DNA of 64,000 nucleotides, taken from assembly GCF_046119375.1 (NCBI RefSeq), contig NW_027362771.1:532952001-533016000 (forward strand), given 5' to 3'. Shown here in pieces: positions 1-21,228 of this stretch. Made by a program: the position numbers and the translations under genes. How positions within the stretch are numbered: position 1 is the first letter of the stretch; the number at the start of each line of letters is the position of its first letter. The notes under the pieces are model-generated. The model had not been told where the DNA came from and did no database searches. It saw only the letters and a list, made by a program, of their open reading frames with translations. This DNA comes from Phyllobates terribilis (lineage: Eukaryota).

Positions 1-323
1 CACCACCACTATGTGGGCCCATTATACTGTATGGAGGACTATGTGGGGCCCATTATTCTGTAAGGAGGACTATGTGGGGCCCATTATTCTGTATGGAGGA
101 CTATGTGGGGCCCATTATACTGTATGGAGGACTATTTGGGCCCATTATACTGTATGGAGGACTATGTGGGGCCCATTATTCTGTATGGAGGACTATGTGG
201 GGCCCATTATATTGTATGGAGGACTATTTGGGCCCATTATACTGTATGGAGGACTATGTGGGACCCATTATTCTGTATGGAGGACTATGTGGGGCCATTA
301 TACTGTATGGAGGACTATGTGGG
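1..323. repeat. 30/31-bp minisatellite (CTATGTGGGG[C]CCATTAT[A/T]CTGTATGGAGGA), left part of an array split by the Gypsy insertion
   Basis: About 10 tandem copies visible; the same unit resumes at 8273 directly after the LTR. Confidence 0.97.
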
Positions 324-1333
324 TGACGCGCCCCCTGAGCCGTGTGTGCACATGTGTGGGTTACCCGGAGCCAGGTCTCTGGGGGTTGTAGTCTCCGTGG
401 CGGCGACCCGGTCCCGTGGCTCAGGGTGGTCAAACCAGTGGCAGTCTTTTATAGGTTTTAGGTTAATTGTCCGACTACGCCACCCGTGGATTGCGGTCAG
501 GGTGTACCGCCGCTGCGAAGCAGACCGCTGAGGCTGGTGTTGTATGCGCAGCAGAGAATGGGATGACTCCCCACGGGAGGAGTATAGCCTCAGGGCAGTG
601 AATGTGGATGATGGGAGTGATGGTGCACGAGCGCAGCAGGAATGACTCAGAGTCTTTGCAGTGCAGTTCAGGGTCTTTACTGATGATAATAAGGCAGACC
701 CTCCCGGGAGTACTGGCTAGCATAAGAGGCCTGGTCAGCCTGTGAGCAAATAGGAGTTCCCCTGGCCAGGTGGAATTGTAGGCCTCCCCGTCTGTCTGCA
801 CTCTTCCTGGCTACCTTGCTGTAAGCGAGTGGAAGTAGCCCACGTCCCTGAGTGTACCGTGTAGTGCTCACCCGTATGGCTGGTGACTTGGGGCCTTCTG
901 ATAGCCTCCACTCCTCGATGGCGGTGCTGGTCCCTTGCTCGTGACTGAGCCTCCGGGCTTCTATGGCCAGAGGACCTGGAATCCCCTGCCGGCTGGTTTC
1001 TGCTGCTGGACTTAAAGATCCTTGCAGCCTCGGACTCCGGTGTCCGGTTCTTAGATTCTTCTGCCAGGGCGAGCTATGCTCAGCTCCAGCCCCTGGTCTT
1101 CAGCTCCTGCTCCTACAGAGCTCCTTGCTGTTACTTTCCCTGTGTCTGGAACTAACTCCAGGCTCTGACTTTCTAAGCCCGCCCCAGACCCAGTTTATAA
1201 GGGCAGATTCCTCCCCTCCCAGGACTGGGCAGGAGGTGTTGCATGTTTAAGGGCTCCTGACCAGGAAACCTCCCACTTGCTCTCAGACGTAATATTTCTA
1301 TTACTGTGGTAACCAGACCCCTGGGGTGCCACA
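324..1333 (-). repeat. 3' LTR of element A
   Basis: Direct repeat of 7264-8272; adjacent to the PPT; AGTAAA poly(A)-like signal at 676-681 (minus). Confidence 0.96.
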
Positions 1334-1342
1334 TTCCCCCCT
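1334..1342 (-). promoter_or_regulatory. Polypurine tract of element A
   Basis: Minus strand reads AGGGGGGAA immediately before the TGTGGCACCCC LTR start. Confidence 0.9.
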
Positions 1343-1790
1343 AGTGAATTTTAGTACTCCGGGACTAAACACATTTTTTAAGAAAAACACAATTACAAGG
1401 TATAACAATAACATAACATATGTACAAGGACATTTTGTCTTTAAGGTCACGGCGCTTCCGTAAGCGGGTGTCCATATCACCCAAGGTGAAGTTTTAGAGT
1501 AGGGGACCTGTCCAAAGCAAACCCCAAGCGTTGGCCCTGGGCGTGGCTGCAAGGCGAAGCTAACTACTTTGGACCACATAGGGCCACGCCAGACAGGTTT
1601 TCCTTCCGTGGCCGTCTTCGCAAGAGGCACCAAGTGCAACTAGCTACAATGTAGTTCCGGTTATTCAGCGTCCATAACCTGTCAGTCCAAATAAACCTGA
1701 AGGGTAACTAGAGAAACATAATTAATAAACAGGCAACAGACATAAACGATTTTCAACATTAGCAGTTTACAGGTAAATTCACATTACAGT

Positions 1791-4700
1791 TTAGATTCTC
1801 CAGCGAGCGGGCATCTGTCCTCTAGTGTTCCTGGTGGACCTACGTAACCCACTATCTGGTTCTGCACTACAGGGTGTAGGAGGTGTTACGGGCAGGCCTG
1901 GCTGCTTTCTGCGTACTCTTTGGCTTACTAGGGGCACGGCAGGCTCACTACTAGCAGAGGGTTGATTCTCCTGGGCTGCTGGTATGGATTCTTCTGCCTC
2001 CTGGGCCGGCTGCTCTTCTGACACTACCTGTTCTTCTGTAGGCCCTTGAGGGGCTGGCTGGAGAAAGGTGAGGACGGGTACCACGATAGCGTTGTTGATT
2101 TGTGTCCAGGACTGGGGAAAGTCACCGAGTACTGTACTGATCATTTCTTCCCTTTCCTCTGCGGGTTGAGGGTTCTCTTGATCTTCGTCAGTGCTTTGCA
2201 GCTGCTCGGGACACTTTTTCAGGTGGTCTCTGGAGACAATGGCTGTGGTTTCTCCTCCATCCTTACTGATTATGCAGACTTTTGGATTATCATGGCTTGA
2301 GGGCAGTACTGTGTACGGGTCCTTCTTCCACTGGTCCTCCAACTTGTGGAGCCGCCTCTTTCTCTTCAAGACCTGTTCTCCAGGTACCAGGGGGACAGTG
2401 GGAGCATGCTGGTTATAAGTCTTCTCTTGCCTTTCTCTTGCTTGAGACAGACTTCACTCGACGCTCTCCTGTACTTTCCGATACTGCTGCTGCCGTTCTG
2501 TATCCCAGTCTGCCTCTGGCGAGGTGTCCTCAGGTGTCAGGACTCCCATATCCAGGTCAATAGGCAGCTTACCAGGTCTTGCTCTCATTAGGTAAGCCGG
2601 GGTACAGTTGGTGGAACCTACGGGGATGTGATTATACAAGTCCACCAGATCAGGCAGTTTTTCAGGCCACAGACTGCGTTCTTCCAGGGGCAACGTTTTT
2701 AGCAAGTCTATCACCACCTGGTTCATTTTCTCACATAGTCCGTTGGTCTGAGGGTGATAGGGCGTTGTTCTTATCTTCCTGCAGCCATACAGATTGCAGA
2801 ACTCTTGGAAGACCTCCGCTTCGAAGGCTGGCCCTTGGTCAGTCAACACTTGCTCCGGATACCCGTGTGGATGGCAGAAGTGCTGCTGGAAGGCTCTAGC
2901 TGCTGTTTGAGCCATTAAGTCCTTGACAGGGACCACCACCAGGAACCGGAAGTAGTGATCTACGATGGTGAGGGCGTAGACGTACCCAGATTTGCTTGGA
3001 GCCAGTTTCACATGGTCCAGGGCTACCAGTTCCAGTGGCTGCCTGGTGATGATGGGCTGCAGGGGAATCTTCTGGCTGGCGCGGTCCTTCCTTCTTAGGT
3101 TGCACGGGCCACAGTCTCTACAAAACCTCTCGATGGCTCCTCTCATGCCTACCCAGTAGAACCGTCCACGCAACAGGAACTCCAGCTTCTTCCATCCGAA
3201 GAGTCCTGCTCCGTCGTGGTATGCCTCCAGAACCATAGCCGCGTCTCGTCTTGGGACCACTACCTGCCAGGTCAGCTCATGTGTTCTAGAGTTGACCATT
3301 CTCCGGCACAGCTTCTCCTTGTAAAGAAACAGTTTACTTTTCTCCTTCCACAGTTGCTTGGTCTCCTCCGGAGCGTCTGGATCAAGACGGGCATCAGCCT
3401 GTGTCAGCATTTCCTTCACCAGACGGACTGCGGGTTCACTGTCTTGTGTCTCCGCCCAGCTGTAGTGGGGTAAGGGATTGAACGTAGCAGAGCGCCTGTC
3501 CCTTACACGGTGGGAATACAGGGTAATCCCATGACGGTGGAACGCAGGGAGCTCGACTTCTTCCAGTTCTTCTGGATCTTCCCCTACGTCCTGTAAGTTT
3601 TGGATTCTGGACAGGGCATCCGCGTTGGCATTTGAGCGTCCCGCCCGGTATTTGATGGTGAATTCATAGTTGGACAGGCGGGCCATCCATCTCTGCTCCA
3701 GCCTTGCAGTGTCCAGGTGTGTCAACGGGTTGTTATCCGTGTACACGGTGAACTTGGAAGAGGCAAGGTAATGCTTGAAACGTTCGGTCACTGCCCACAC
3801 CACTGCCAGGAACTCTAGCTTGAATGAGCTATAATTCTCAGGGTTTCTCTCTGTGGGCCGTAGTTTTCGGCTGGCGTAAGCGATTACCCGTTCTTTCCCC
3901 TGCTGGATCTGGGACAGTACGGCTCCTAGCCCGATGTTGCTCGCGAACGTGTGAAGGATAACGGGCTGGACGTAGTCAGGGTACACCAGGATTTCATCCC
4001 CCGTGAGGGCCATCTTCAGCTGGCGGAAGGACTCCTCTTCCAGCTTTTCCCACCTGAAGGGCGGCTTCTGGTTTTTGACCTTCCTGGATTGACCTATCAA
4101 GAGGTCCTGCATAGGAGCTGCCATTTTGGTGAAACCGGGAATGAATCTTCGGTAGTAGCCTACCAACCCGAGGAACTGCTGCACTTCCTTTATGCTGGAG
4201 GGTCTTGGCCAGTCTTTAATCACGGTGATCTTATCGGGGTCGGGAGCCACTCCGTCAGCACTCACCACGTGTCCCAGGTACTGTACCTTTGGTTTCAGCA
4301 GGTGACACTTGGAGGGTTTCACCTTTAGGCCGTAGCTTGCCAGGGCGTCAAACACTTCTGCCAGGTGTTTCAGATGGTCCTCGTAGGTTTTGGAATAAAC
4401 GATGACATCGTCCATGTATAACAGGACTGTCTCGAAATTCCGGTATCCCAGACAGCATTCCATCAACCGCTGGAAGGTTCCTGGTGCGTTGCAGAGCCCT
4501 AACGGCATACAGTTGAATTCGCTGAGACCCATCGGGGTGGTGAATGCAGTCTTCTCCTTGTCTGCCTCTGCTACAGGAACCTGCCAGTACCCGCTAGTAA
4601 GATCCAAAGTGGAGAAGAAGTTAGCAGATTTTAATGCAGCTAAAGATTCTTCTATTCTAGGTAATGGGTACGCATCTTTGTGTGTGATACGGTTGACCTT

Positions 4701-5918
4701 TCTGTAGTCTACACACATTCTCATTGTGTTGTCCTTCTTTTTCACTAGAACTAGTGGAGCTGCCCAGGCGCTACAGCTGTCCCTGATTACCCCAGCCTCC
4801 TTCATGTCCCGCAACATCCCCTTTGCATGCTGATAGTGTGCAGGGGGTACAGGTCGGTATCTTTCCTTTATGGGAGGATGGTCTCCTGTGGGGATGTGAT
4901 GTTCTACCCCCTTTACTCACCCGAAGTCTAGCGGGTGTTTACTAAAGACTCTTTCGTACTCCTGAACCACCCGGTAGACTCCCTGTTTTTGGTGTGAGGG
5001 AGTGGAGTCAGTACCCAAATGCAGTTGCTGACACCAGTCCTCCATTTGTTTCTTAGAGCCGTTACCTTCCTCTGGTTGAGATGGAGGCAAGGGTTCCACA
5101 GCCCTTACAGAATTTTGGTTTATGGTGAACAATTTGGCTAGCGTGGCATACCAGGGCAGGTATACTTCTCTCTCCCCGATATTTATGATGCGGACAGGCA
5201 CCCTCCCATGGCGTACATCGACCACCCCCTGTGCTGTCAAAATGGTGGGCCTACTGTCTGAGTAGACGGGCTCTACCATTGCTTGGTAGTCTCTACCCCT
5301 TAGACCAATAGCTGCCCGGCACCAGATCATCATCTCACTTTTCGGGGGCATGGCAATAGGGAACGGGTCACACATTCTCACGCTACCAATCTCACCACCA
5401 GATAGTTCCACTTGTTGCCGTTTCATCAGAGCCCGGATCTCTTTTTGGAGAACACGCTGCTGTCTGGAACTGGCGTTCTTGGCAACCTGCTGTAAAATGA
5501 GAATTATCTCTGCAAGACAATTTTCAATCACGTTAGTTCCCAAGGTTATTTTAGGGTGACTCTCATGACGGTCAATGTCCACAATATTCAGTCCTTGTGC
5601 CGCCAGTTCGACTTTACCGATTTTAATGGTCACCTCTTTGAATCCCACCTGCGGCACGGGCTGACCATTGCTGGCGATGATACTCAGGTCGTCATCTGGG
5701 TAGCGGGTTATGTCCGAGTCATTCCAATACCGCTTAAAGAGCACATAAGGGATGGTAGTTACCTGTGACCCGGTGTCTAGTAGGGCACTCATAGGAATGC
5801 CATCCAGTACCACAGGCAAGACTGGACGTCCCCCTACGTATTTATCACGCCAGTTCGATGGGCCTGATGACCGTATGCCTGGGGGTTTGCCCTCTGCTCC
5901 AGGTTGTGCCCGTTTAAA
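1791..5918 (-). pseudogene. pol: pol polyprotein (aspartic protease, RT, RNase H, integrase) with two in-frame TGA stops
   Basis: ORFs 4917-6038, 2454-4817 and 1791-2369 are one reading frame split by TGA at 4917-4919 and 2454-2456. Motifs: LLDTGSQVT (PR); LDLTSGYWQV, MPLGLCNAPGTFQR, LLYMDDV (RT); YSSFKLEFLAV, VYTDNNPL (RH); ALDHV / TDQGPAFE / NGLCEKMN (IN D,D,E). Confidence 0.95.
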
Positions 5919-6865
5919 TGACAGTACCTTGCCATATGTCCGGGTTGATTGCAGCGGCGGCAGATGGGTTGTCCGTCCTCGTTGTATCTGTCGCTGGGTC
6001 TTCCTCTGGACGATGGGATCCTCCTCTGTCGGCGCCACGGGACGTCCTCCGGTCCGGATGCCAGCTGGATCTTTCCTGGAGGAGAGACCTGTAAAGACTG
6101 CACAGTTCTGGTTAGCGCAGCAACGCTTTTGGTTAGCTCTTGGACCTGATGGTGCAGGTCTGTAGCCGGGTTGTTGTCCAAAGCCTGCGCATCAGCTCCC
6201 ACAGGCCCTGCAGACAAGGGCGCCTTCTCCTTGGGATAAGTGATAGCGGGGCGCCTGTGGGTTACAGTGCCACCTGGTGCCGGTTCTCGGAGCACCCGGA
6301 TGGCTCTGTCCTTGAACTGTGCAAAATCTAAATCAGGGTCCTGTAGGGCCATTGCCCGCAACTGGGTTCGGTGGGCATTGGACAGTAGACCCTCTATGAA
6401 TTGTTCAGTCAACAGCTTTTCTTCATTCCGCACGCTGTCAGGGTCTGCCTGCTTAATGGCTCTCAGGGCCTCCTGCAAGTTCAAAGCATAGTCCCTTATA
6501 CTTTCTTGTGCCCGTTGCTTGCACCCATAAAATCTTAGTTTGATCTCCGCTGAGGTACGGGTATCAAAAGTGTCCTTCAGACGGGCTAAGATCTCCTTCA
6601 CAGTCTCCTTGTCCCTGACTGACCAGGACTTTACTTCACGCTGGGCTGCGCCGGTTAACTGGCCTATCAATATGATCACTTTTTGTCCCTCCGTCAGGGG
6701 GTATACTTTAAATAGGCTGTACAGTCTCTCTTTAAAGTCGCTTAGGGTATGCGACTCCCCTGAGTATTGGGGCAGCCAGGCCGCTCCGGGGATGTATGGC
6801 ATTGTGAACGGCATTACTGTGGCAGTGGCCGCGCTGGTGGTAGAGGGTCCCTCCGTGTCCGACAT
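5834..6865 (-). CDS. gag: Gag (343 aa) with C-terminal CCHC zinc knuckle
   Basis: Open 343-codon ATG ORF downstream of the PBS; capsid-like FYGCKQRAQESIRDYALNLQ; knuckle CRRCNQPGHMARYC. Confidence 0.93.
   Translation of the reverse strand: MSDTEGPSTTSAATATVMPFTMPYIPGAAWLPQYSGESHTLSDFKERLYSLFKVYPLTEGQKVIILIGQLTGAAQREVKSWSVRDKETVKEILARLKDTFDTRTSAEIKLRFYGCKQRAQESIRDYALNLQEALRAIKQADPDSVRNEEKLLTEQFIEGLLSNAHRTQLRAMALQDPDLDFAQFKDRAIRVLREPAPGGTVTHRRPAITYPKEKAPLSAGPVGADAQALDNNPATDLHHQVQELTKSVAALTRTVQSLQVSPPGKIQLASGPEDVPWRRQRRIPSSRGRPSDRYNEDGQPICRRCNQPGHMARYCHLNGHNLEQRANPQAYGHQAHRTGVINT
5875..5918 (-). promoter_or_regulatory. -1 ribosomal frameshift signal gag/pol (U UUA AAC plus downstream stem-loop)
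   Basis: Slippery heptamer TTTAAAC at 5912-5918 in the correct gag phase (CAT TTA AAC); pol is in the -1 frame; CCTGG...GGGCAAACCC...CCAGG stem 8 nt downstream. Confidence 0.8.
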
Positions 6866-7240
6866 CTTCCTCCCCCCTAGTTAAGTGTGGCCTACCTTCC
6901 GTCGATCCTCTTCCGTAGGCCGCGGCTCCGCTGGTGCTGCTCCGGGCGAGGACCTTGCGTCGCGTCCTGGTGACGTCAGGGTCGCTCTCTCTCCTTCCAG
7001 GACCTTGCGTAGGGTCGGTGCGTAGGGCGGGGCTTCAGGTCTCGCGCGGTTTGGACGTCCACGCCCCTCTTCTTCCCGCGCGGCGTCCTGAAGATGGCGT
7101 CCGATGGCGGGAAAACAGCTGAAGACGGCGGGAAGCGACTGAAGATGGTGGGAAACAGCTCCGGATGGCGGGAAACTTCACTCAGGTAAGTACAAAGTCT
7201 TTTTCAGGCACGCAATACCTGTTTGTGGCTGTTTGGTCAC

Positions 7241-7259
7241 AATCCTGCCGACTACGCCA
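7241..7259 (-). promoter_or_regulatory. Primer-binding site complementary to the tRNA-Ser 3' end (element A)
   Basis: Plus strand AATCCTGCCGACTACGCCA equals the 3' 19 nt (with CCA) of vertebrate tRNA-Ser(AGA/TGA); 4 nt from the LTR. Confidence 0.92.
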
Positions 7260-7263
7260 AAGT

Positions 7264-8272
7264 TGACGCACCCCTGAGCCGTGTGTGCACGTGTGTGGGT
7301 TACCCGGAGTCGGGTCTCTGGGGGTTGTAGTCTCCGTGGTGGTGACCCGGTCCCGTGGCTCAGGGTGGTCAAACCAGTGGCAGTCTTTTATAGGTTTTAG
7401 GTTAATTGTCCGACTACGCCACCCGTGGATTGCGGTCAGGGTGTACCGCCGCTACGAGGCAGACCACTGAGGCTGGTGTTGTATGCGCAGCAGAGAATGG
7501 GATGACTCTCCACGGGAGGAGTATAGCCTCAGGGCAGTGAATGTGGATGATGGGAGTGATGGTGCACAAGCGCAGCAGGAACGACTCAGAGTCTTTGCAG
7601 TGCAGTTCAGGGTCTTTACTGATGATAATAAGGCAGACCCTCCCGGGAGTACTGGCTAGCATAAGAGGCCTGGTCAGTCTGTGAGCAAATAGGAGTTCCC
7701 CTGGCCAGGTGGAGCTGTAGGCCTCCCCGTCTGTCTGCACTCTTCCTGGCTACCTTGCTGTAAGCGAGTGGAAGTAGCCCACGTCCCTGAGTGTACCGTG
7801 TAGTGCTCACCCGTATGGCTGGTGACTTGAGGCCTTCTGATAGCCCCCGCTCCTCGATGGCGGTGCTGGTCCCTTGCTTGTGACTGAGCCTCCGGGCTTC
7901 TATGGCCAGAGGACCTGAAATCCCCTGCCGGCTGGTTTCTGCTGCTGGACTTAAAGATCCTTGCAGCCTCGGACTCCGGTGTCCGGTTCTTAGATTCTTC
8001 TGCCAGGGCGAGCTCTGCTTAGCTCCAGCCCCTGGTCTTCAGCTCCTGCTCATACAGAGCTCCTTGCTGTTACTTTCCCTGTGTCTGGAACTAACTCCAG
8101 GCTCTGACTTTCTAACCCCGCCCCAGACCCAGTTTATAAGAGCAGATTCCTCCCCTCCCAGGACTGGGCAGGAGGTGTTGCATGTTTAAGGGCTCATGAC
8201 CAGGAAACCTCCCACTTGCTCCCAGACGTAATATTTCTATTACTGTGGTAACCAGACCCCTGGGGTGCCACA
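7264..8272 (-). repeat. 5' LTR of element A
   Basis: Direct repeat of 324-1333, followed on the minus strand by the PBS; candidate TATAAA at 8133-8138 (minus). Confidence 0.96.
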
Positions 8273-9333
8273 TGGGGCCATTATACTGTATGGAGAACTA
8301 TGTGGGGCCCATTATTCTGTATGAAGGACTATGTGGGGCCATTATACTGTATGGAGGACTATGTGGGGCCATTATACAGTATGGAGGACTATGTGGGGCC
8401 ATTATACTGTATGGAGCACTATGTGGGGCCATTATACTGTATGGAGCACTATGTGGGGCCCATTATTCTGTATGGAGGACTATGTGGGGCCATTATACTG
8501 TATGGAGCACTATGTGGGGCCATTATACTGTATGGAGCACTATGTGGGGCCCATTCTTCTGTATGGAGGACTATGTGGGGCCATTATACTGTATGGAAGA
8601 CTATGTGGGGCCATTATACTGTATGGAGGACTATGTGGGGCCATTATACTGTATGGAGCACTATGTGGGGCCATTATACTGTATGGAGCACTATGTGGGG
8701 CCATTATACTGTATGGAGCACTATGTGGGGCCCATTATTCTGTATGGAGGACTATGTGGGGCCATTATACTGTATGGAGCACTATGTGGGGCCCATTATT
8801 CTGTATGGAGGACTATGTGGGGCCATTATACTGTATGGAAGACTATGTGGGGGCCATTATACTGTATGGAGGACTATGTGGGGCCCACTATTCTGTATGA
8901 AGGACTATGTGGGGCCCATTATTCTGTATGGAGGACTATGTGGGGTCCATTATTCTGTATGGAGAACTATGTGGGGCCCATTATTCTGTATGGAGGACTA
9001 TGTGGGGCTCATTATTCTGTATGGAGGATTATGTGGGGGCCATTATACTGTATGGAGGATTATGTGGGGCCCATTATTCTGTATGGAGGACTATGTGGGG
9101 CCCATTATTCTGTATGGAGGACAATATGGGGCCTATTATTCTGTATGGAGTTGTTGATTGTAAGCTCTTATGAGCATTATTTTTGTTTTAATTATTGTAT
9201 TATCTTTAGCTATGTTACTTATGACTGTTGTATATGAACCTCTGAATTGTAAAGCGCTGCAGAATATGTTGGCTCTATATAAATGAAGATTATTATTCTG
9301 TATGGAGGACTATGTGGGTCCATTATTCTGTAT
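8273..9333. repeat. 30/31-bp minisatellite, right part (interrupted at 9151-9297 by an L2 tail)
   Basis: Same unit as 1-323. Confidence 0.95.
9151..9297 (+). mobile_element. 3' end fragment of an L2-clade LINE (or derived SINE) inserted in the minisatellite
   Basis: Ends TGTAAAGCGCTGCAGAATATGTTGGCTCTATATAAATGAAGATTATTATT; the same tail family occurs at 19211-19317. Confidence 0.7.
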
Positions 9334-9403
9334 AGTGGTTGGCCTGCGGCTTTGTCCAAGTTTTTCATTTTGGCCCTCTGTGTGTTTGAGTTTGGCATCC
9401 CTG
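9334..9403. mobile_element. Right end / TIR of a putative hAT (Charlie-like) non-autonomous transposon carrying the minisatellite
   Basis: Ends GAGTTTGGCATCCCTG (revcomp CAGGGATGCCAAACTC, resembling the CAGGGGTGTCAAACTC hAT terminus); the same ~65-bp flank follows the second array at 24421-24483. Confidence 0.6.
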
Positions 9404-9429
9404 CTATCGGGCTAAGAACTTATTGCCAG

Positions 9430-11040
9430 GTAGTTTTTAACTACCTGCCTGTCCTGTCCTACACCGATGTCTTCTGGCTCAGAGCGGGTCATGGACCACT
9501 ACTTCCAGCAATTCTCCTGCTTCCTGAATACTGAATGTGTGAACGTGTCCTTAGGGTTGTTTCTTGCAATAGGTGGCACTAGAATTCAAGTCCTCTTCCC
9601 CTCTGAAGATGCAATTTGCATTTTTACAAGACAAAGGCAAAGTACAAACAGAGTTTTTTGATGTGGTCAAAGAAGATGAATTTTTTTTAAGCAGACACCA
9701 CATCAAGAAACAATTATTTTCTTTTGGAGAAGTTTTTAATTTCCTGGAGAGTTTCCTGAAATGCTCTTTGAAACCTTTTAATTGCAAAGTGCCTCGTTTA
9801 GAGAAGTTTCCTACAGGATCTTCTAGAAAGAAGTAATATGAACTTTTCAAAGTGTTTTCAAAACCTTTTCAGGAAACAAAAGCTCAACAAACTTCTTAGC
9901 ATTTGTTCACACTTAAAAGAAGTGACATACTCAATCTTCAGGTGCCTAAATTACCTGCTCTGGATACTTGAAGTACCGTTGGGGTATGTACACACAATGT
10001 CTTTATCAGACAGATTCTGCTTGAAATCCGTCTGAAAAATTGCTTTAAAAATGCTAAAAAATTAACATATGCACTGCAATGTCAAAATAACTTGCTGTGA
10101 ACATTTTCAGCCTTTTCGAACTTCTTTTAACTATTTCGGGCTTTGAAAGACATGAAGCGGCTATAAGAAGTGACCTATCCATTCTTTATGCAGCTTCATT
10201 TTGGAAGTCGCTCATTAATAAATATCAAAATGTTCTTAAAAAAGATGAAAAAAAATGTTTTAAATATGCCAGAGAAAGATGTTTCTTGTCAAAAAACGTT
10301 GGTAGGTCCTGCAACGTCTTCCTCTGGCAAAACTCAGCATCTGCTCCAAAAATTCTGCAAAAAAGCACAAACAACAAAAACACCCCAACTCTCAAATCAA
10401 AATTCATGTTTTTTAATCTCTCATGGTCTTTGAAGAGTTTCTGCTCCAGAACACACATCAGAGTCTTTTTGCTGAGTTTTTGGATCAGAAACTAAGCGAA
10501 AATTCAAAGTTTTTGAGGAGTTTTGAGATTTGGAGGAGGATTTGGAAAGCTTCTCCACTAAAAACTCCTTGAAATACTCTGTGTGCACATAGCCCAAGGA
10601 TATGTGCACACAACGTCTTTTATATGCCAGCATTCCCACCGAATTTTCCCAGACAAAGATGCTTTAAGAAAACCCTGGCAGAGTTCTTGAATTCTTTTTG
10701 GACGTCCTTTGCGGTGGCTTCGCCGCAGGGATCTTTTTTCCACTTTCTATATGTAAAATAGTGGTGGCTTCTAAGCAGAAGCCACCAAAAAAAGGACTGG
10801 TCACTTCTCTTGGCCGTTTCAAGGATTTCGAAGCCTGAAGCGGTTAAATGAAGTGACAAAAGATGGAACATATGCACAGCAGAGTCGTTTTGACATTGCT
10901 GTGCATTATGTTCATTCTTTGTAGCATTTTAAGGGTGTGTTTGTGCTTTTTCTGTTTTTCTGTCGCTCTTTGGGCTAAAAACTCATAAAAACAAACAAAC
11001 AAAAAAGCCACTAAAAAAAGCTCAATAGAATGAAAGTAAT
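9430..11040. repeat. Cluster of decayed palindromic MITEs (GGCTATGTGCACAC / GGGTATGTACACAC-type ends, Harbinger-like)
   Basis: Recurrent GTGTGCACATAGCC, GGGTATGTACACAC and AAAAACTC/GAGTTTTT inverted motifs; individual boundaries not resolvable by eye. Confidence 0.45.
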
Positions 11041-11099
11041 CATTTCTATTTAAAAATGACTTGCTGTTCATATGTTCAGGCAAAAGACAAGTGTTTAAC

Positions 11100-11524
11100 A
11101 GTAGTAACTGGGACAAGGGGGCATCCTCTACGTAGAGGAAAGGAGGTTTAATCATAATCACAGACGGCGATTCTTTACTGTAAGAGCAGTGAGACTATGG
11201 ATTCTCTACTGTAAGAGCAGTGAGACTGTGGAAGTCTCTGCCTCATGATGTTGTAATGGTTGATTCACTACTAAAATTCAAGAGGGGTCTGGATGTCTTC
11301 CAAACATATAATATTACAGGATATGTGCACTAGATTCTGTGATGGGACATTGATCCAGGGAACTAGTCTGATTGCTGTATGTGGAGTCGGGAAGAAATTT
11401 TTCTCCTAATATGGAGCTATTAGTGTCTGCCCCATGGGGTTTTTGCCTTCCTCTGGATCAACATGTTAGACTATAGGTTGAACGCGATGGACTTAAGTCT
11501 CTGTACAACCTTAAAACTATGAAA
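11100..11524 (+). mobile_element. CR1 LINE 3' fragment
   Basis: Degenerate ORF2 C-terminus (TRGHPL..RRF..FFTVRAVRLW.SLP..VV...FKRGLD) and CR1-type 3' end GGTTGAAC-CGATGGACTT...AACC; short tandem duplication of TACTGTAAGAGCAGTGAGACT. Confidence 0.75.
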
Positions 11525-12393
11525 GGCACATTCTTCAGTGACTTTTCACTAGGAAGATGCTCGATACTTTACAATACAAATCAATGGGATGACTAAATGC
11601 TCGAAAGACACCAGTGCGAGTTTTTGCACTTTTTTTTCAGTGCTTCCTTTGCAAAAACTGTTAGCAGTCTTTTGATTTCCTCATGGAGATCAGAAAAACG
11701 TCCAGAGATCAAATAAGCTGGGGAATAAAAATGTTAGGGAGACAACAGACAAAAAAAAACTAGCAAAAGACTCGTCAAGTTTACAAAACCTCCATACAAA
11801 AGGAAAGTTTTCCGAAGCGTCTTCTGCTTTTTAAACAGCAGAAAAAGACACAGTGTGAACACACCCTAAAAGTTTGCTTTTTATAGAAAACGCTGCTGCG
11901 TCTCTGGTAACCACCAGGTGGCGGTAGGAAGCCTTACTTATGTGTAATGTTGTTTGTTGCTTATCTTGGGAAGGAGTCACATATACTTTATGACACAGTA
12001 ATTAGAAGGCTGAAACCTAGAGACAGTTGTAGGTAAGCCAGTGGTCTGCTCCAGAACACACCCCAAGGGTATAAGCACGCGGAGTCTTTTTGCTGAGTTT
12101 TCAGAGCAGAAACTGACGGGAAACTCAAAGTTTTTGAAGAGTTTTGAGATTTGGAGAGCTACTCCAGTAGGAGTACACACCCAAAAATGATGCACGACAG
12201 AGCACACGTTCGCTCTGTCGGCACCATTATAGTCTAAGGCCCCGTCGGCACCATTATAGTCTATGGACCCGTCAGCACATACACCCAAATCCCGTTTTGC
12301 AGGGGGGGTTCGGACTCAAGCCCCGAAGGGACCAAGGAACAGGTGGCAAAACACAGTGTGAAAGGGCCCTAAGAGATGCCGTGTGCACATTCC

Positions 12394-12790
12394 TTAAAGA
12401 GGTTGTCCACTACTTTTAAATTGATGGCCCATCCTCAGGATAGGTGATCAATGTCTGATCGGCTGGGGTCCAACACCCGGCAACCCTGCGATCAGCTGTT
12501 AACAGTGTTGGCGGCAGAGGCTACCGTCTGAAAGTGCTCACTTGCCAAGCTGCTCCGTCTTCTCGTAGTGGCCGCCCAGGGTACTGCACATCCGCCTCAT
12601 TGATTTGAATAGAAGTTTGATGTGCAGTACCAAGCCCCGACTACTACAAGGAGACAGAGCAGCTCAACAAACGAGTATCTCCGGCGACACTGGTAACAGC
12701 TGATCGGCGGTGGTGCTGGACCCCGACCAGACATGGATGACCTATCCTAAGGATAGGCCATCAATATAAAAGTAGTGGACAACCTCTTAA
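12394..12790. mobile_element. T2/Kolobok-type MITE (TTAA-flanked)
   Basis: TTAA-AGAGGTTGTCCACTACTTT ... AAAGTAGTGGACAACCTCT-TAA terminal inverted repeats with extended subterminal symmetry. Confidence 0.75.
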
Positions 12791-13849
12791 AGGGCTTTTT
12801 CTCCTGAGCCCTCATACACATGAATTATAATTGGATGAGGGGCGTTGTCTATGATGCTGGCTTATCTCCTCTGCAAAATGATCGGGCATTAAAATTTAAC
12901 ATGCCCAGTCCTCACAATCTGCTAGGGAAGAATCAGGAGACCCCATATACATAGGGCAGTCCCGTTGAGATTGGCAGGACCAGACGACCTTGCACCAATG
13001 TGTATCGGGGCCGTACGTTTTCTTACCCCTTACTAATTAACTAAGACTCATATCTGCTTATTTAGACACCAAACTAATTTAGGGGGGGGGGGGAATCAAC
13101 GCACATAAACCTAATTCTAGATTACTCATAGGATTAAGGGGTTATCGGGACCACAGACATGAATATAGGGTGTGCCCAGAAACACCCTAATATAGTCCAA
13201 CATAAGTCCTGTATGAGCGGAGGTAGCTCATTTCCTGGGTGCACATCATAACCAAACACACCTATGCACACCTATGATCGGGATTATTGTTATGTGACAC
13301 TTCTGTGTTTCTTGCAATTTTATTAGTACCGGGAAAATGTGCACGTCCTCTGTGTACTACTCTCAATGCGGCAGAAAATGGGTAGAAAAATAGACCAAGT
13401 TCATTTAGAGAGTACCCAGTGCAGACGATGCCCCATTTCTAAATAATGAAGTTCCCAATGCTGCAAACCGCTATTATATGTGAGAATGGCTGCTAGGTAG
13501 TAGCACAAGATAAATGAGTCTGGTGTGTGAGCAGCGTGTGCCCAGTGGATGCCCGTCCATCACCGCCAGCTCCATTGCAGATACGCACACTGTACTATAC
13601 AAACAGAAATATTGCATTGTCAGGGGGTAAATGGATGTGTGCACATTACCATAACTCACAGGATGGTGTATACTTCCTGGCACTTTGTGTAAATTACTGA
13701 TATAGATGTTCCTATTGATGCCAGTGAATAATGTCATCTCCCGCTAAGTGTTAGTGAGAGTTATAGGGGCAGCGCCACCTGCAGGATTGATTCCTAATAT
13801 TAAGAAATAAAATACCTGCTCCTGAAAGAAATAAAATGTCCTTCTCTTC

Positions 13850-14433
13850 CATAAATCTAGTTTTAACCCCTATTTGAACTCATCGTGTTTCTTCCCTCTA
13901 GTAACCTACCTAAGCCCAATATTACCATCTCCGTGTGTGATTCTACCATTACTCCTCAGCAGCACGCCTGCTGTGTTGGGGTTATATTTGACTCAGATCT
14001 TTCCTTCACTCCCCACATCCGATCACTCACTCGCTCCTGTCACCTGCACCTGAAACACATCTCTAGAATCCGACCTTTTCTCACCTTTGAAGCTGCAAAA
14101 ACTCTTACTGTCACTCTTATTCATTCTCATCCGGACTACTGCTACCCTCTACTGATCAGTCTCCTCTTACTAAACTCTCCCCTCTCGAATCCGTCCTGAA
14201 TGTGGCAGCCAGGATCATATTCCTGTCCAGCGATTACACTGATGTCTCTACCCTGTGCCAGCCATTGCACAGGTTACCCATCTGCTACAGAGTCCAGTAT
14301 AAACTTATCACTCTCATCCACGGTTCAGCACCATCCTACATCTCCTCCCTCATCTCAATCTACCACCCTACCTGTGCCCTCCATTCCACTAATGACCTAA
14401 GACTAACATCCTCTAGAATCTGAGCCTTCCACT
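13850..14433 (+). mobile_element. Decayed L2-clade LINE fragment (RT C-terminus), left part; host of element B
   Basis: Translates GVIFDSDLSFTPHI...ISRIRPFL...LIHSHPDYC, homologous to the L2 RT at 38431-40107; frameshifted; continues at 19211. Confidence 0.85.
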
Positions 14434-15672
14434 TGACGCGCCCCCTGGGCCGTGTGTGGGCGACTACCCGGAGCCGGGTCTCTGTGTAATGCTGGGGGTT
14501 GTAGTCTCCGTGGCGGCGACCCGGTCACGTGGCTCAGGGTGGTCAAACCAGTGGCGGATCTGTCTACTTGGTTTTTAATGTTGAAATGTCCGACTACGCC
14601 ACCCGTGGATTGCGGTCACTGAGAACCGCCGCTGCGGGGCAGACAGCTGAGGCTGATGTTGTGTGCGCAGCAGAGGGTAGTATAACTCCCCACGGGAGGA
14701 GTATAGCCTCAGGGCAGTGAGTGCAGATGATGGGGGTGATGGTGCGCGGGAGCAACAGTAATGACTCAGAGTCCAGTGATGCAGTCCAGGGTCTTTACTC
14801 ACAGTTTTTACACTCCAAGCCACTTCTGCAGGTAATGGCTGCCCACGTCGTGCTGTGCTCACCAGGTGAGAGGCTCGGCCAACTCCCAGGTACCTTTGGA
14901 ATGCTTTTCAGGACCCCCTTCGTGTGTCCTTCCTCTGGCCCGTCGTACCCCACAATTGACCACACTTCTGTCCAGCTGCCTCGGGCCTTGGCAGGCAAAC
15001 GTATGTTCTGTTTCCCTGGGCCCTATATGGTGCCTTCCTAACGGGTGTAGTGAGGAGCCGTGATACGTACAATGCCACAGCCTCCGGTTACTAGCTGAGG
15101 GTAGTTGCTCTCCTCCACTAGCTGAGGGATCCGGTTCCCTTTCTTGGCCTGACCCCCCTACTCTGGTAGCGGCGGGCGTACGGTGGCGACTGGCCGGTCC
15201 GCACCCCTGGGGTCCCTTCACTCCACTCCTGGAGCCTCCTCCGCTCCTCTCCTCTCTGACTGAACTCAGCAACTCTTCTCTTCTCCAGGCTCAGGCCTTG
15301 AGACTTGGTCTCCCTGCGGAGCAGAGCCCGTACAGAGCCCCTGCTCCCAGTCTTCCTCTCTCTCTTCTCTCTGACTCCAAGATGGTGCCCACCTTATATA
15401 CTCCTCTTTCCAGTGCACCCTGAATCTACTCTCCCCACCCACACACTACCGGGTTCCCCCTTTCTAGGTGTTCCCTCCCCCCACTCCAGCCAGGGACAGG
15501 GGCAGTTGTGCTCACTCTTGGGAGCATTGTCGCCCTGTCCACAGGAAATGTGGTGTAGTGCAAGTGGGTGTTAGGGTCCTGAGCCACACTCCATCCTTAC
15601 CTGGAAGTGAGATATCACACCTCTGGGTGAGATGCAATACCTCTATAGCGACCGAACCCTCGGGGCGCTACA
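14434..15672 (-). repeat. 3' LTR of element B
   Basis: Direct repeat of 17973-19210; AGTAAA at 14794-14799 (minus). Confidence 0.95.
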
Positions 15673-15682
15673 TTCCCCCCCT
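15673..15682 (-). promoter_or_regulatory. Polypurine tract of element B
   Basis: Minus strand AGGGGGGGAA abutting TGTAGCGCCCC; same type as the element A PPT. Confidence 0.9.
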
Positions 15683-16320
15683 GGTAAATCACAGCACGTC
15701 CGCGGGCTGCAACAGAGCAAAAGACAATTGATTTCAAGACATGCAGAATTAAAGTTGTTGTTTTTTTTGTTTGTTTTTTTAACGTTACTTGTTATAAAAC
15801 TTTTCTCTTTTCAAAAATATTATAATACTTTCTTCACATATATAGGACATTATAAAACTCTTTTCACTTGCATAAACACATTTGTCACATATAAAACATT
15901 TTTCTTCATAAACATTCTTCATGTAACACTTCTATCAACTGGTCACAGTGCACTTTGCAACCCGGTGTCCATCTTTCCATAAAGTGCAAATTTGCGAACA
16001 TGAGGGACCCGTCCCAAACCCTCAACGGAGGCCCTGGGGTGGCTGCAGGGCATAGATGATCCAGGTGTTGGACCACGTCTTCGGCCACCTCCAACGGGTT
16101 TTTGTTCTGAGGTCATAGGTTGTATTAATATAAAACCAATAGGGGGCACTTTAATAAGTGCAATTATTTACAAGGAAAGTTTTTTGGGAGATCACCGTCC
16201 TCTTCCCTATTGTCTCTATACCTACACGGGTAACTAATTAAACAGACACAAAACCGGTCAAACTTGCAAAGTTTCCTGCACCCTTTCAAGTAACTTATTT
16301 ACAGTTTCTGCTGCTGCTCT

Positions 16321-17478
16321 CTAGTAGCGGTGTCCCCCTGGTGGACGTTCCTGCTCATCAAATTCTTCAGACCCGTCCGGGTCCTCCGTGTAGCAGGATT
16401 CAGGGTAGCGCTGTTCTTCTACCCGCTGAACGTTGAGGGCGTACCAACCCCGCAGGCCTCGATGTCGGGAGTATGACACCAGATTCCACTGGAACACAAC
16501 CCGTCTCGGGTGACCCTCGGGCAGGCGACTCTCCACATCCCTCCGGTTGACAAAGATGTCTGTGTTCGTCGCCGGGTCCCGAATGAACCCCCACCCCTTC
16601 TTCTGGTGGAACCCGACCACAGTCCCGGTGACTTTGGGACCGCATGCAGCCTGGGGGTCTCGGCTGGCCCGGGTCTTTTCCTCCGCGCTCCGGGCCTGTA
16701 GCTGCTCCTGTTTTTGGCGCCGCGCCTGCCTCTCCTTTTCCAGCTGCGCCAACTCCCGGTGGCGGAATTCTCGCCTGCGGGCTGAGTCCGCCTGCGTCTC
16801 TTGCGAGAACCCCATCAGGACCTCCCCGGTCTGGTCCCACTCAAATTGGACCTCTTCATCCGGGAGCTGGGGGATGGTGATTGGCTGCGGAGCGGGCAGG
16901 AGCGGAGGAAGCGGGGCCTTGGCCTCCGCGTACGGGTCCCTCCGGTGGCAAGGGTGAACCCATCCGCGTAGTAAGGGGACCGGCTCTCCATCAGGATCGG
17001 TAATTTGACTATACAAGTCCGTGCCCAGGGGTGGTAATGTTGGGACCGGGGGCGCTAGTTGGTGGAAGGCGCCTGGGGGCATCAGGCCTTGCAACCAGGC
17101 CTGGAGCGGGTCGCTTCCGGCCGCACCCGGGATCAAGAGGCATGGTGTGGGGCGTGGTCCGGCGGCTGCGCTTGGGGCCTGGGGCCTAGGTGTAGGCGGC
17201 GGGAGTGGAGGAGGTGCAGCGACTCCCGGGACGATCGGCTCCACGGCGGGGTCCAGGGGCAGGCTAATGGCGTCAGGGCTTGTAGCAGGGGCGTCCCTCT
17301 TACCTGCTCCCATAGCAGCGCTGCTCTCGGCCTCTGGCCGTCTCTCTCTGTCCTCGGGGGCAGGCACGCTGTCAGGTGCTGGCAGCGCCGCTTGCTGCTG
17401 GGTCGCGACCCGCCGGTCCATTTCCTCTTTCCACCCCGCGATGGCCTCCCGCTGTGCCTGGACCATCCTCCGGTCCAA
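16321..17478 (-). CDS. Cold-shock-domain protein (coiled-coil / Pro-rich / charged helix / CSD / acidic tail); probably the 3' part of a longer frameshifted ORF starting near 17857
   Basis: 385 open codons; residues from 282 (nt 16420-16635) KVTGTVVGFHQKKGWGFIRDPATNTDIFVNRRDV...GLRGWYALNV align with CSDs (RNP1-like KGWGFI, RNP2-like DIFVN). The listed start is a TTG, so the true start is uncertain. Confidence 0.8.
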   Translation of the reverse strand: MDRRMVQAQREAIAGWKEEMDRRVATQQQAALPAPDSVPAPEDRERRPEAESSAAMGAGKRDAPATSPDAISLPLDPAVEPIVPGVAAPPPLPPPTPRPQAPSAAAGPRPTPCLLIPGAAGSDPLQAWLQGLMPPGAFHQLAPPVPTLPPLGTDLYSQITDPDGEPVPLLRGWVHPCHRRDPYAEAKAPLPPLLPAPQPITIPQLPDEEVQFEWDQTGEVLMGFSQETQADSARRREFRHRELAQLEKERQARRQKQEQLQARSAEEKTRASRDPQAACGPKVTGTVVGFHQKKGWGFIRDPATNTDIFVNRRDVESRLPEGHPRRVVFQWNLVSYSRHRGLRGWYALNVQRVEEQRYPESCYTEDPDGSEEFDEQERPPGGHRY

Positions 17479-17857
17479 ATCCTCCAGCCCGGAGGAATTC
17501 AGGGTCCTCTCTGGGGAGCTGGGCCATCAGCTCCGCGAGGCTGCACAGAGCCGCTTCGGCCTGCAGCAGGCCACTGGTAAGGGTCCTGGGGCTGGCGCTC
17601 CTCGCCATTTCCGGGTGTGGTCTGCCAAGACTGATCCAAACCACACCCTGCCCTTCGGTTTTCTTTCCCTTCCGCCCCTGTTGGGGGTGGTCCCGGGGCA
17701 ACCTGCTGGCAATCACTCTCAGGGGCAGCCCCCCCACGTTGATGGACATCTCTACAGCCGCACTCATGGCCGTTGGGGGTGGGCTCCATCTTTGGCGCCA
17801 TTCTGGGACCTGGCCCACGATGGGAGGTGGCTTCTTGTTGTCTTTTGGCGCGCACAT
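17372..17857 (-). CDS. Upstream ORF of element B, probable N-terminal part of the CSD protein
   Basis: ATG at 17855-17857, about 90 nt after the PBS; helical segment LTSGLLQAEAALCSLAELMAQLPREDPEFLR joins LEDLDRRMVQ of the next frame if one G is skipped at ~17488-17491. Confidence 0.45.
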   Translation of the reverse strand: MCAPKDNKKPPPIVGQVPEWRQRWSPPPTAMSAAVEMSINVGGLPLRVIASRLPRDHPQQGRKGKKTEGQGVVWISLGRPHPEMARSASPRTLTSGLLQAEAALCSLAELMAQLPREDPEFLRAGGFGPEDGPGTAGGHRGVERGNGPAGRDPAASGAAST

Positions 17858-17945
17858 AATGGCGCCCGTTCTTCTGGGGCGGGCGCCACATTCAATACAG
17901 TGAAACAGTCTCTAGGCACACAATACCCGATGATAACGGGTTGGT

Positions 17946-17968
17946 TTCGAATCCTGCCGACTACGCCA
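17946..17968 (-). promoter_or_regulatory. Primer-binding site, tRNA-Ser (element B)
   Basis: TTCGAATCCTGCCGACTACGCCA equals the 3' 23 nt of tRNA-Ser(AGA/TGA)+CCA; same AAGT spacer to the LTR as in element A. Confidence 0.93.
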
Positions 17969-17972
17969 AAGT

Positions 17973-19210
17973 TGACGCGCCCCCTGGGCCGTGTGTGGGG
18001 AATACCCGAGCCGGGTCTCTGTGTAATGTTGGGGGTTGTAGTCTCCGTGGTGGCGACCCGGTCCCGTGGCTCAGGGTGGTGAAACCAGTGGCGGATCTGT
18101 CTACTTGGTTTTTAATGTTGAAATGTCCGACTACGCCACCCGTGGATTGCGGCCACTGAGAACCGCCGCTGCGGGGCCGACCGCTGAGGCTGATGTTGTG
18201 TGCGCAGCAGAGGGTAGTATAACTCCCCACGGGAGGAGTATAGCCTCAGGGCAGTGAGTGCAGATGATGGGGGTGATGGTGCGCGGTGGTGCGTGGGAGC
18301 AACAGTAATGACTCAGAGTCCAGTGATGCAGTCCAGGGTCTTTACTCACAGTTTTTACACTCCAAGCCACTTCTGCAGGTAATGGCTGCCCACGTTGTAC
18401 TATGCTCACCAGGTGAGAGGCTCGGCCAACTCCCAGGTACCTTTGGAATGCTTTTCAGGACCCCCTTCGTGTGTCCTTCCTCTGGCCCGTCGTACCCCAC
18501 AATTGTTCACGTTTCTGTCCAGCTGCCTCGGGCCTTGGTGGGCAAACATATGTTCCGTTTCCCTGGGCCCTATATGGTGCCTTCCTAACGGGTGTAGTGA
18601 GGGGCCGTGACACGTACAATGCCACAGCCTCCGGTTACTAGCTGAGGGTAGTTGCTCTCCTCCACTAGCTGAGGGATCCGGTTCCATTTCTTGGCCTGAC
18701 CCCCCTACTCCGGGCGTACGGTGGCGACTGGCCAGTCCGCACCCCTGGGGTCCCTTCACTCCACTCCTGGAGCCTCCTCCGCTCCTCTCCTCTCTGACTG
18801 AACTCAGCAACTCTTCTCTTCTCCAGGCTCAGGCCTTGAGGCTTGGCCTCCCTGCGGAGCAGAGCCCGTACAGAGCCCCTGCTCCCAGTCTTCCTCTCTC
18901 TCTTTTCTCTGACTCCAAGATGGTGCCCACCTTATATACTCCTCTTTCCAGTGCACCCTGAATCTACTCTCCCCACCCACACACTACTGGGTTCCCGCTT
19001 TCTAGGTGTTGCCTCCCCCCACTCCAGCCAGGGACAGGGGCAGTTTTGCTCACTCTTCGTAGCATTGTCGCCCTGTCCCCCGGAAATGTGGTCTAGTGCA
19101 TGTGGGTGTTAGGGTCCTGAGCCACACTCCATCCTTACCTGGAAGTGAGATATCACACCTCTGGGTGAGATGCAATACCTCTGTAGCGACCGAACCCTCA
19201 GGGCGCTACA
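17973..19210 (-). repeat. 5' LTR of element B
   Basis: Direct repeat; candidate TATATAA at 18932-18938 (minus). Confidence 0.95.
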
Positions 19211-19317
19211 CCACTCCCTATCTCTAAACGTCTCTCGTGCTGCACCACTTCCGTGAAATGTTGAGAACATGTTGGCACTATAGAAATAAAGATTATTAGC
19301 ATTATTTATTATTATTT
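19211..19317 (+). mobile_element. L2 fragment, right part with (ATT)n tail
   Basis: Continues the 13850-14433 sequence across the TSD; ends ATGTTGGCACTATAGAAATAAAGATTATTAGCATTATTTATTATTATT. Confidence 0.8.
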
Positions 19318-19913
19318 TTCTGGAGAGCAGACTTTGGGGAATGGCATGACTGTTTCCAGAGACAATATTTTATTAAGATTGGTGGAGGCTCCTGGGTAAA
19401 AAATGTAGAGTGGGCCTATCCATTAGAACATCATTGCATTGTGCTGGTCTGCTTGGAAAGAAGATGCCCGCTAAGCCATGGGGTTTCATTAGCTTGCAGC
19501 GCCGAGAGTCAAAGGCTCCCTTGGGACCACTAAACCAGATGGGAAGAATCAAGGTAGATAGGGAGTTTGGAGGTGGAAGCCTCAGGGTAACGTGACTTAT
19601 GTGCCCTCCCGCTAAACAGATGCTGCCGGCAGATATCTAATGTTTGTGGCTAACTTTAGCCCCACCTGCAATCAATGGGAGTGACCGGAGCTATGCCCAA
19701 AGCTTCTTAAGTATCTCAGCCACAGTTGTTCAAAAGTACCGGATACCCTCTTAAGGAGAACCTGTTAAGTGACAGCCAATCACTGGGCTCAGCAGTGATG
19801 CCGATGTAGGCAACTCAAGACCACTTAAATCAGTCATTGGCTGCAGTGGTCACATTCGGCAGTTGTGACATCACTGCTACCTTTATGCCAGCCAAGCCCT
19901 GGGCAATGCTGGG

Positions 19914-20523
19914 TGTCACGGGTGTATCAGGTTTTATTGACAGTCGCTCTGGATCCAGCTGTAGAAGGTCGCTGCGCTTGGCCTTGCAGACACCTTCTTG
20001 ATCCTTTCATCTTTGTAGTGTGGTGGTATCCTTTTATCACTGGGTCCCAGTGGTGATCTCCACCTTCTGCTGCTAATTGCCACACGCTTGCTTGATCTTT
20101 CAATGCCCTCAGTGTCTCCAGAGAGTCGCTGGTGATAAGAGTAAATTCCTCTGTTCAAGTCTGGTATACTAGCAGTCGGCTAGATTCGTCTTGGAGTTCC
20201 GTTGAGGATTGTAGTCGTGATCTCTCTGGTGTCTTCTCAAAGCTAAGTGTATCCTCTTGTCTGTTTCCCTTGTTTGTCTTTAGTTGCAGTCGGGGCTGAC
20301 TAGTGCTCACCCCTCTCCCTCCCTAGCAAGGGCCTAGCTCTAAGGACAGCCAATGTTTAAGTATCCTGCTCAGCGATAGGTGAGGGACCTATCTAGGGAC
20401 GATAGGGGAGTCAGGGTGTTGTTATATCTACCTAAGGGTCTCCACTCTCCCTTTCCCTAGTTGCTGGGCTTCCGCCCTTTTCCCTTCGTCGTTCACTGGA
20501 TCCTTCCCATACCTAGCATGACA
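19914..20523. mobile_element. Putative solo LTR (unrelated family)
   Basis: TGTCACG...CATGACA inverted termini spanning 610 bp; no convincing TSD. Confidence 0.45.
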
Positions 20524-21119: not shown

Positions 21120-21228
21120 GCAATCCTCGGACTGGCCGGCGGCTCTCCCGACCCGAGTGTGGCAGCATGTATTTCTTTGCAGCTTTCACGCTCGGGTCAG
21201 GAGAGCCGCCGGCCAGTCCGAGGATTGC
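21120..21228. repeat. GC-rich palindrome / MITE core
   Basis: GCAATCCTCGGACTGGCCGGCGGCTCTCC is perfectly inverted over 29 bp, extending to about 42 bp with mismatches. Confidence 0.9.

Follow-up and report, generated by a model that had tools for sequence, protein, structure and literature searches.

Helper-passenger pairs of retrotransposons with long terminal repeats (LTRs), LTR swapping, and vertebrate LTR elements that lack pol and carry a single open reading frame (ORF) are already known. In the soybean SNARE family, reportedly described by Du et al. in 2010, an autonomous element (SARE) and a non-autonomous one (SNRE) are said to have swapped LTRs. Non-autonomous LTR elements use Gag, reverse transcriptase (RT), and integrase in trans, and the helpers of TRIMs and LARDs have been inferred from similarity of the primer-binding site (PBS) region and from the length of the target-site duplication (TSD) (PMC10886601, PMC4079214). 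Poison-frog genomes are very large and Ty3/Gypsy-dominated, with many elements unclassified and with egg expression of elements (PMC11152451, PMC6278860). Here, two LTR elements, A and B, are described from a stretch of 64,000 nucleotides of Phyllobates terribilis (assembly GCF_046119375.1, contig NW_027362771.1, positions 532,952,001 to 533,016,000, forward strand), called the window below. Element B, whose only recognizable protein domain is a cold-shock domain (CSD), is probably a member of a poison-frog clade of non-autonomous Ty3/Gypsy derivatives that is moved in trans by A-related elements and in which an LTR block was exchanged.

Elements A and B and their shared backbone

Both elements lie on the minus strand with 6161 bp between them, as the earlier note had it (about 6 kb, same orientation); because the genome is repeat-rich, neither adjacency nor orientation needs an explanation. 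Element B consists of the following parts.

14434-19210, minus: element B, non-autonomous LTR element with a CSD ORF
17973-19210, minus: 5' LTR of B, 1238 bp
14434-15672, minus: 3' LTR of B, 1239 bp, 3.1% different from the 5' LTR
17946-17972, minus: PBS of B for tRNA-Ser, 23 nt complementary, plus a 4-nt spacer at 17969-17972
15673-15682, minus: polypurine tract (PPT) of B, 7 G
15683-16320, minus: 3' untranslated region (3'UTR) of B
14429-14433 and 19211-19215, unstranded: TSD of B, clean 5 bp, within a decayed long interspersed nuclear element (LINE) fragment

LTR pair, PBS, PPT, and TSD together give B the make-up of a non-autonomous LTR element. In its 2300-bp interior, a Pfam scan of three frames found no gag, RT, RNase H, integrase, or protease domain, the CSD being the sole domain. 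The LTR pair and the 5-bp TSD argue for insertion by an integrase; being devoid of gag and pol and having its att ends, PBS, leader start, 3'UTR, and PPT in common with A, B would have to be moved in trans by Gypsy kin of A. From the sequence, mobilization of B by the A lineage appears very probable. Element A is made up as follows.

324-8272, minus: element A, full-length Ty3/Gypsy LTR retrotransposon with broken pol (from LTRs, domains, and stops)
7264-8272, minus: 5' LTR of A, 1009 bp (from LTR alignment)
324-1333, minus: 3' LTR of A, 1010 bp, 2.7% different from the 5' LTR
7241-7263, minus: PBS of A for tRNA-Ser, 19 nt complementary, plus a 4-nt spacer at 7260-7263
1334-1342, minus: PPT of A, 6 G
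5834-6865, minus: gag of A, open; PNMA-type capsid (PF14893, E 8e-8) and CCHC knuckle
1791-6191, minus: pol frame of A, in the order protease-RT-RNase H-integrase (Pfam)
5912-5918, minus: candidate slippery heptamer within the gag-pol overlap
1343-1790, minus: 3'UTR of A, homologous to that of B
320-323 and 8273-8276, unstranded: TSD of A, 4 bp as read, within a G-run of a 31-bp satellite

Paired LTRs (TG...CA, as in all LTRs of both elements), PBS, PPT, and gag followed by pol in Ty3/Gypsy order place A in Ty3/Gypsy; domains were assigned with Pfam, and the PBS were matched to the tRNA-Ser 3' end printed in PMC3299991. The earlier note had called A autonomous, which the present copy is not, because its pol frame is interrupted by two in-frame stops (4917-4919 and 2454-2456). 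The A leader is CpG-rich (observed/expected 1.05) and holds a 20-bp tandem repeat of 3.7 copies (7103-7176), inside which lies a sequence that we take to be a YY1-like motif.

324-681 and 7264-7620, minus: shared LTR 3' block, A copies, with AGTAAA as its start in the sense direction; presumed to comprise the end of R together with U5
14434-14799 and 17973-18346, minus: shared LTR 3' block, B copies
471-482, 7410-7421, 14590-14601, and 18127-18138, minus: second PBS-like exact 12-mer, present in all four LTRs

The two backbones are alike to three different degrees: about 89% in the LTR 3' block, about 70% in the 3'UTR and at the leader start, and little above background in U3/R. The block is about 360 bp long with 88-90% ungapped A-B identity; when A 324-681 is aligned with B 14434-14799, 311 of the 347 paired bases agree (89.6%; 82.5% with gaps counted), a score reached by 0 of 200 shuffles, and the four A-B pairs differ by a Kimura two-parameter (K2P) distance of 0.11-0.14 and by 9-14 indel events. 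Identity per 50 columns steps at AGTAAA, from 0.60-0.94 within the block to 0.34-0.60 beyond. Across 30 nt at the outer LTR end A and B are 67% alike (0/500 shuffles). The score of the remaining LTR is equalled by 1 of 500 shuffles with the terminus included, by 16 of 400 without the first 35 nt (25, 48, and 102 of 400 for its parts), and by 90 of 200 under stricter scoring, so that any deep homology of U3/R would be at most marginal. Block homology, its end at AGTAAA, the unlikeness of the remaining LTR save for the terminus, and the common tRNA-Ser PBS, spacer, and PPT had all been claimed before, and all hold on measurement.

A further likeness had been missed: the 3'UTRs of A and B are homologous over about 460 aligned nt (57% of columns, 70% ungapped; 0/500 shuffles). 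The first 60 nt 3' of the PBS are likewise related (0/500 shuffles; whole leader, 31/500). B thus stems from an A-related element and is no mere borrower of LTR ends. The spacer between LTR and PBS has the same sequence in A and B; in other copies (contigs, see below) it is 4 nt long in each displayed junction with several variant sequences, so that its identity here is weak evidence of a special tie.

TATA-like hexamers are found at 8133-8138 in A and at 18933-18938 in B, and an octamer, AGTCAGAG, lies about 25-30 nt past the hexamer in both LTRs as a candidate start site; A-B similarity of this region is not significant (25/400 shuffles). If the candidate start is real, R would measure 500-600 nt, and each leader would be about 1.3 kb long and contain several upstream ATGs. 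It is plausible that the CSD gene has a promoter module of its own, including the TATA at 18933-18938. A second A/T-rich poly(A) candidate is located close to the LTR end (B 18111-18116, A 7387-7392); the label U5 for the shared block is one that we infer. The second PBS-like 12-mer lies about 160 nt from the LTR end and has CA and four further bases in front of it, as has the true PBS; it may be what is left of an LTR end, another site for a tRNA, or a target of tRNA fragments. Folding of the shared block together with the leader gave structures no more stable than those of shuffles (z -1.1 and +1.0), and no conserved RNA structure is therefore claimed.

The LTRs of A differ at 27 of 1009 positions (2.7%) and those of B at 38 of 1228 (3.1%; Fisher p = 0.61, one copy each). 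The similar divergence reported earlier thus stands, with values at the bottom of the 3-5% range that had been judged by eye. A-B divergence of the block (K2P 0.11-0.14) is about four times that of the LTR pairs (0.03); any exchange therefore predates both insertions, and the A subfamily is one candidate helper among others. The earlier claim of mobilization by the A family is retained for Gypsy elements of A kin, from the shared backbone, and not for the A family in particular. That A's own subfamily served as the helper of B is possible, if rather doubtful.

At the B insertion, the reading frame of the LINE fragment is restored in the empty site only with a 5-bp TSD, not with 4. This fragment (13867-14433 plus 19211-19300, plus strand), interrupted by B, is a decayed relative of a LINE RT-like ORF of 724 aa at 38431-40605 (minus strand), presumably of L2/CR1 type. 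The 31-bp satellite forms three arrays (8-323, 8273-9150, and 21228-24420), into one of which A is inserted. Over 125 satellite units the G-run has four G in 100, three in 16 (one being the junction), five in 4, and fewer in 5; since its length varies, the TSD of A may be 5 bp with one slipped base.

Cargo ORF and cold-shock domain

16321-17608, minus: cargo ORF of B, about 430 codons, frameshifted near 17485-17495; main frame 16321-17526 open
16423-16629, minus: CSD, PF00313, E 5.6e-6 (26.6 bits, cut-off 27)

The ORF of B encodes a helical N-terminus, a proline-rich middle (25% Pro over 180 residues), a 44-residue helix, the CSD, and a 31-residue acidic tail. A full HMMER search with it returned 232 proteins at E <= 0.001; 10 matches were looked up among the 150 of 232 listed, of which seven were uncharacterized poison-frog proteins (Phyllobates terribilis, Ranitomeya variabilis, R. 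imitator, and Anomaloglossus baeobatrachus) and three came from other sources (a CspA-family protein and two multi-CSD proteins). A profile search added an eighth homologue, P0155 (61% identity; four matches among 8000 scored candidates). Among 163 proteins compared, the eight reach 129-227 bits and the best of the others 48.5, with a profile built partly from seven of the eight. A word-seeded protein search with B residues 255-401 found none among 218 candidates, a miss of sensitivity, as the full HMMER search found homologues. Named homologues of the A and B proteins are from poison frogs in every case, and A-type Gag and B-type ORFs are both present in Phyllobates terribilis and Anomaloglossus baeobatrachus.

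The N-terminus of P0155 matches a second frame of B starting at 17608 (19 of 29 residues); the ORF thus spans about 430 codons and is frameshifted in this copy. P0155 is a Phyllobates gene model in which a nuclease of Harbinger type (PF13359, PF04827) is fused to a CSD ORF of B type, which is probably an annotation chimera across nested elements. Its N-terminal 80 residues gave only unnamed short helical matches in the ESM Atlas, where leads for the CSD were found only below 0.9.

Three species each have two or three divergent paralogues. The CSD is kept in at least four species and in subfamilies that fall into separate 50%-identity clusters, and in all 28 pairs compared its conservation exceeds that of the region next to it. 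The predicted structure (mean pLDDT 77) shows the 44-residue helix and a five-stranded barrel; the PF00313 match, the model, and the fold search agree on a five-stranded OB fold with RNP1/RNP2-like motifs. Of proteins with solved structures, YBX1 and YBX2 match the sequence profile of the domain best (E 6e-11; top bacterial protein, 4e-9), and the long beta3-beta4 loop aligns to Y-box proteins with a one-residue gap. In the Foldseek search bacterial Csp and Y-box chains interleave, three bacterial Csp chains standing just above YBX1, and for this reason the donor is not named by structure alone; capture from a host Y-box mRNA would be the simplest origin. The cargo protein is predicted, with some confidence, to bind RNA, most likely single-stranded. 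A Gag-like nature of the ORF was considered and rejected (no Pfam gag; profile comparison with A-type Gag, probability 0.5%).

Proposed helper and LTR exchange, and alternative explanations

Contigs of four of 22 listed sequencing runs (X1, DNA; X9, guessed to be RNA; X10 and X14, kind not stated) were aligned to 14300-17972 at 80% likeness, 16 further runs that contain the stretch being left aside; the cover profile of the X9, X10, and X14 contigs parallels that of X1. B may be present in multiple copies, to judge from the many variant contigs over ORF and LTR in X1 (10-47 per displayed site of the ORF). Other elements share leader, 3'UTR motif, and PBS junction with B, and contigs leave the B leader at 17791 in all four runs (74, 11, 6, and 7 loose ends). 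One contig of 1944 nt (run X14, record 20), aligned at 16058-16174 and 17791-17940, has a B-like leader and 3'UTR flanking 1582 other letters; it reads as a sibling pol-less element with a different or strongly diverged cargo, the insert being too short for gag-pol. Summed contig depth in X1, which serves as a hint only and not as a copy number, is 0.99-1.53 million over the shared block, 1.09 million in the bin at the B LTR start (15530-15652), 59-111 thousand in the middle of the B LTR, and 2.0-5.0 thousand over the ORF, hinting that the elements with the ORF are far fewer than those with the block and the LTR start. The block may thus be common to several families; on this hint A and B are clade-mates and not a dedicated pair, their pairing here probably reflecting clade kinship and chance proximity.

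In the explanation that we favor, the B lineage would have split from a Ty3/Gypsy element of the A lineage, keeping att ends, tRNA-Ser PBS, leader start, 3'UTR, and PPT; where gag-pol would stand, B has a single ORF whose last domain is a Y-box-like CSD. The B transcript would be made from its own U3/R, and its RNA packaged, reverse-transcribed, and integrated by Gag and Pol of intact A-related elements elsewhere in the genome. During co-packaging the LTR 3' block would have been swapped by a jump of minus-strand strong-stop DNA between RNAs at the short shared end of R; as the R regions are otherwise unlike, only a short stretch after the poly(A) signal is shared, and the breakpoint would therefore fall where it is seen. 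Exchange at strand transfer is, on balance, the likelier cause of the AGTAAA breakpoint. According to PMC6894440, intermolecular first-strand transfer yields mosaic LTRs, and cross-packaging of distant families is documented, rare, and a source of new lineages.

Several points weigh against this explanation. No intact helper was seen. Textbook transfer joins U3 to R-U5, and the AGTAAA breakpoint would need an early jump at the 3' end of R; were the poly(A) site at the second candidate, the breakpoint would not be at the R end. The setting of the eight database homologues in LTR elements is one that we infer. TSD length, used for helper assignment of non-autonomous elements in PMC10886601, reads 4 bp in A and 5 bp in B; taken from a single insertion of either element, with that of A in a G-run of varying length, it tips slightly away from a common integrase.

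The TSD lengths, and an A-B divergence of the block about four times that of the LTR pairs, would suit an alternative in which the helper of B is a different autonomous family with B-type U3/R, A being a distant cousin that shares the block or acquired it from the B side. X1 depth at the B LTR start, which equals that of the block although A matches there over only 30 nt at 67%, hints in the same direction. No contig or protein joining a B-type LTR or ORF to pol was seen, however; the four matches among 8000 scored candidates of 283-2000 aa included none with RT or integrase families (a weak point), and the sole sibling that could be followed all the way from leader to 3'UTR has no room for gag-pol. 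We consider such a helper rather unlikely.

Less likely still is a satellite-like passenger clade that has lasted through poison-frog evolution by taking up the LTR 3' block of its helper again and again through co-packaging, its captured, Y-box-derived CSD protein acting on the helper life cycle or on germ-line RNA control by chaperoning, masking, or competing for element RNA. If this were true, an accessory gene on a separate, dependent LTR genome would amount to a segmented retrotransposon in a vertebrate.

The dedicated two-component system proposed in the earlier note, with Gag-Pol from the A family and a cold-shock RNA chaperone under its own promoter from the B family, finds some encouragement in the retention of the CSD across at least four species and divergent subfamilies, in the overlapping ages of the A and B copies, and in the aid that host YB-1 gives to HIV RNA metabolism and early steps (PMC6040738). 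A has a CCHC knuckle of its own, however, and on known grounds needs no added chaperone; block, leader, 3'UTR motif, and PBS junction recur in further elements, both copies here are broken, and the 6-kb spacing is the sole tie between the loci, so that the proposal is not supported and seems very unlikely. Least credible of all is a reading of B as a Gypsy derivative of the usual kind whose interior was replaced, and of its CSD ORF as passive cargo or a host gene family that became domesticated: the frameshift, the departure of this copy from the family motif at several CSD residues, and the first or second codon position of 11 of 13 displayed ORF sites with another letter in other contigs (as decay predicts) would fit, but CSD identity exceeds that of the flanks in every pair, divergent paralogues persist in three species, and many variant contigs cover the ORF in X1.

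An Rfam scan of 1-20000 gave no match, and searches of viral and metagenome contigs gave zero loci of these elements. Elsewhere in the window, a 61-bp satellite of at least 94 copies extends from 58275 to 64000 and runs off the window end; likely host exons at 54335-54667 and 55821-56153 (plus strand) encode Ala/Thr-rich and Gln/Pro/Tyr-rich stretches and, we presume, resemble ZMIZ1/ZMIZ2; short elements with long inverted arms, probably similar to miniature inverted-repeat transposable elements, lie at 12392-12793, 27190-27370, and 57409-57942; and a segment at about 19914-20523, which begins with TGTCA and ends with TGACA, is possibly a solo LTR of another family.

Comparison with known systems

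The helper-passenger principle itself is well known and will not surprise specialists; what is new is that, in poison frogs, a Gypsy derivative of this non-autonomous kind carries a conserved cold-shock cargo of Y-box-like type. No retrotransposon with a CSD was found in the literature searched (Repbase, Dfam, subscription journals, and supplements lay outside the search), the terms cold shock and non-autonomous are absent from the main text of the poison-frog genome papers (PMC11152451, PMC6278860), and the B family may have an entry in a repeat library. A clade of elements without pol in which a host-type RNA-binding domain stays under apparent constraint would account for some of the unclassified repeat fraction and would show, in nature, a gene captured by an LTR retrotransposon of vertebrates; the sharp breakpoint in the LTR would be a testable trace of cross-packaging between distant families, called rare in PMC6894440.

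Element A resembles Ty3/Gypsy elements of the Barthez lineage, under which PNMA genes are listed (PMC3670739), in its PNMA-type Gag, single CCHC knuckle, and PR-RT-RH-IN order (protease, RT, RNase H, integrase); it differs in the broken pol of the present copy. The CSD of the B family has the fold of that of YBX1/YBX2 (root-mean-square deviation 1.7 A), but is only about 31% identical to it; the Trp of strand 1 and the His of RNP2 in the Y-box alignment are replaced, and the domain comes after a long helix and before an acidic tail of 31 residues. Y-box proteins have a near-invariant CSD sequence and a long charged C-terminal domain; with its low identity and short tail, the B protein falls outside them.

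TRIMs are short elements that encode nothing, and the interiors of LARDs are long and likewise non-coding; B, which measures 4.8 kb, has LTRs of 1.2 kb, and holds a conserved ORF in its 2300-bp interior, belongs to neither group. Like TRIMs and LARDs (Helenus, Ajax, Cassandra, Dasheng), B is non-autonomous with LTRs, PBS, and PPT (PMC10886601, PMC4079214). Closer in plan are Bhikhari Bik-1 and Bik-2 of zebrafish (PMC12067270) and 1a11/xretpos of Xenopus (PMC4585706), which share with B one ORF, the lack of pol, and an unidentified partner; the ORFs of Bik-1, Bik-2, and 1a11 are Gag or Gag-like, whereas that of B has no similarity to Gag and ends in a CSD, and the Bik elements are described as endogenous retroviruses (PMC12067270), whereas B derives from Ty3/Gypsy.

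The soybean SNARE family, in which recombination in the course of reverse transcription reportedly left an autonomous and a non-autonomous partner with LTR parts in common, would be like A and B in this respect, and A and B show the same pattern of one LTR part much closer than the rest, with a sharp breakpoint. We know of no captured RNA-binding domain in SNRE. SNARE differs in being a plant family and in that its partnership reportedly rests on genome-wide counts, whereas A and B are each described here from one copy.

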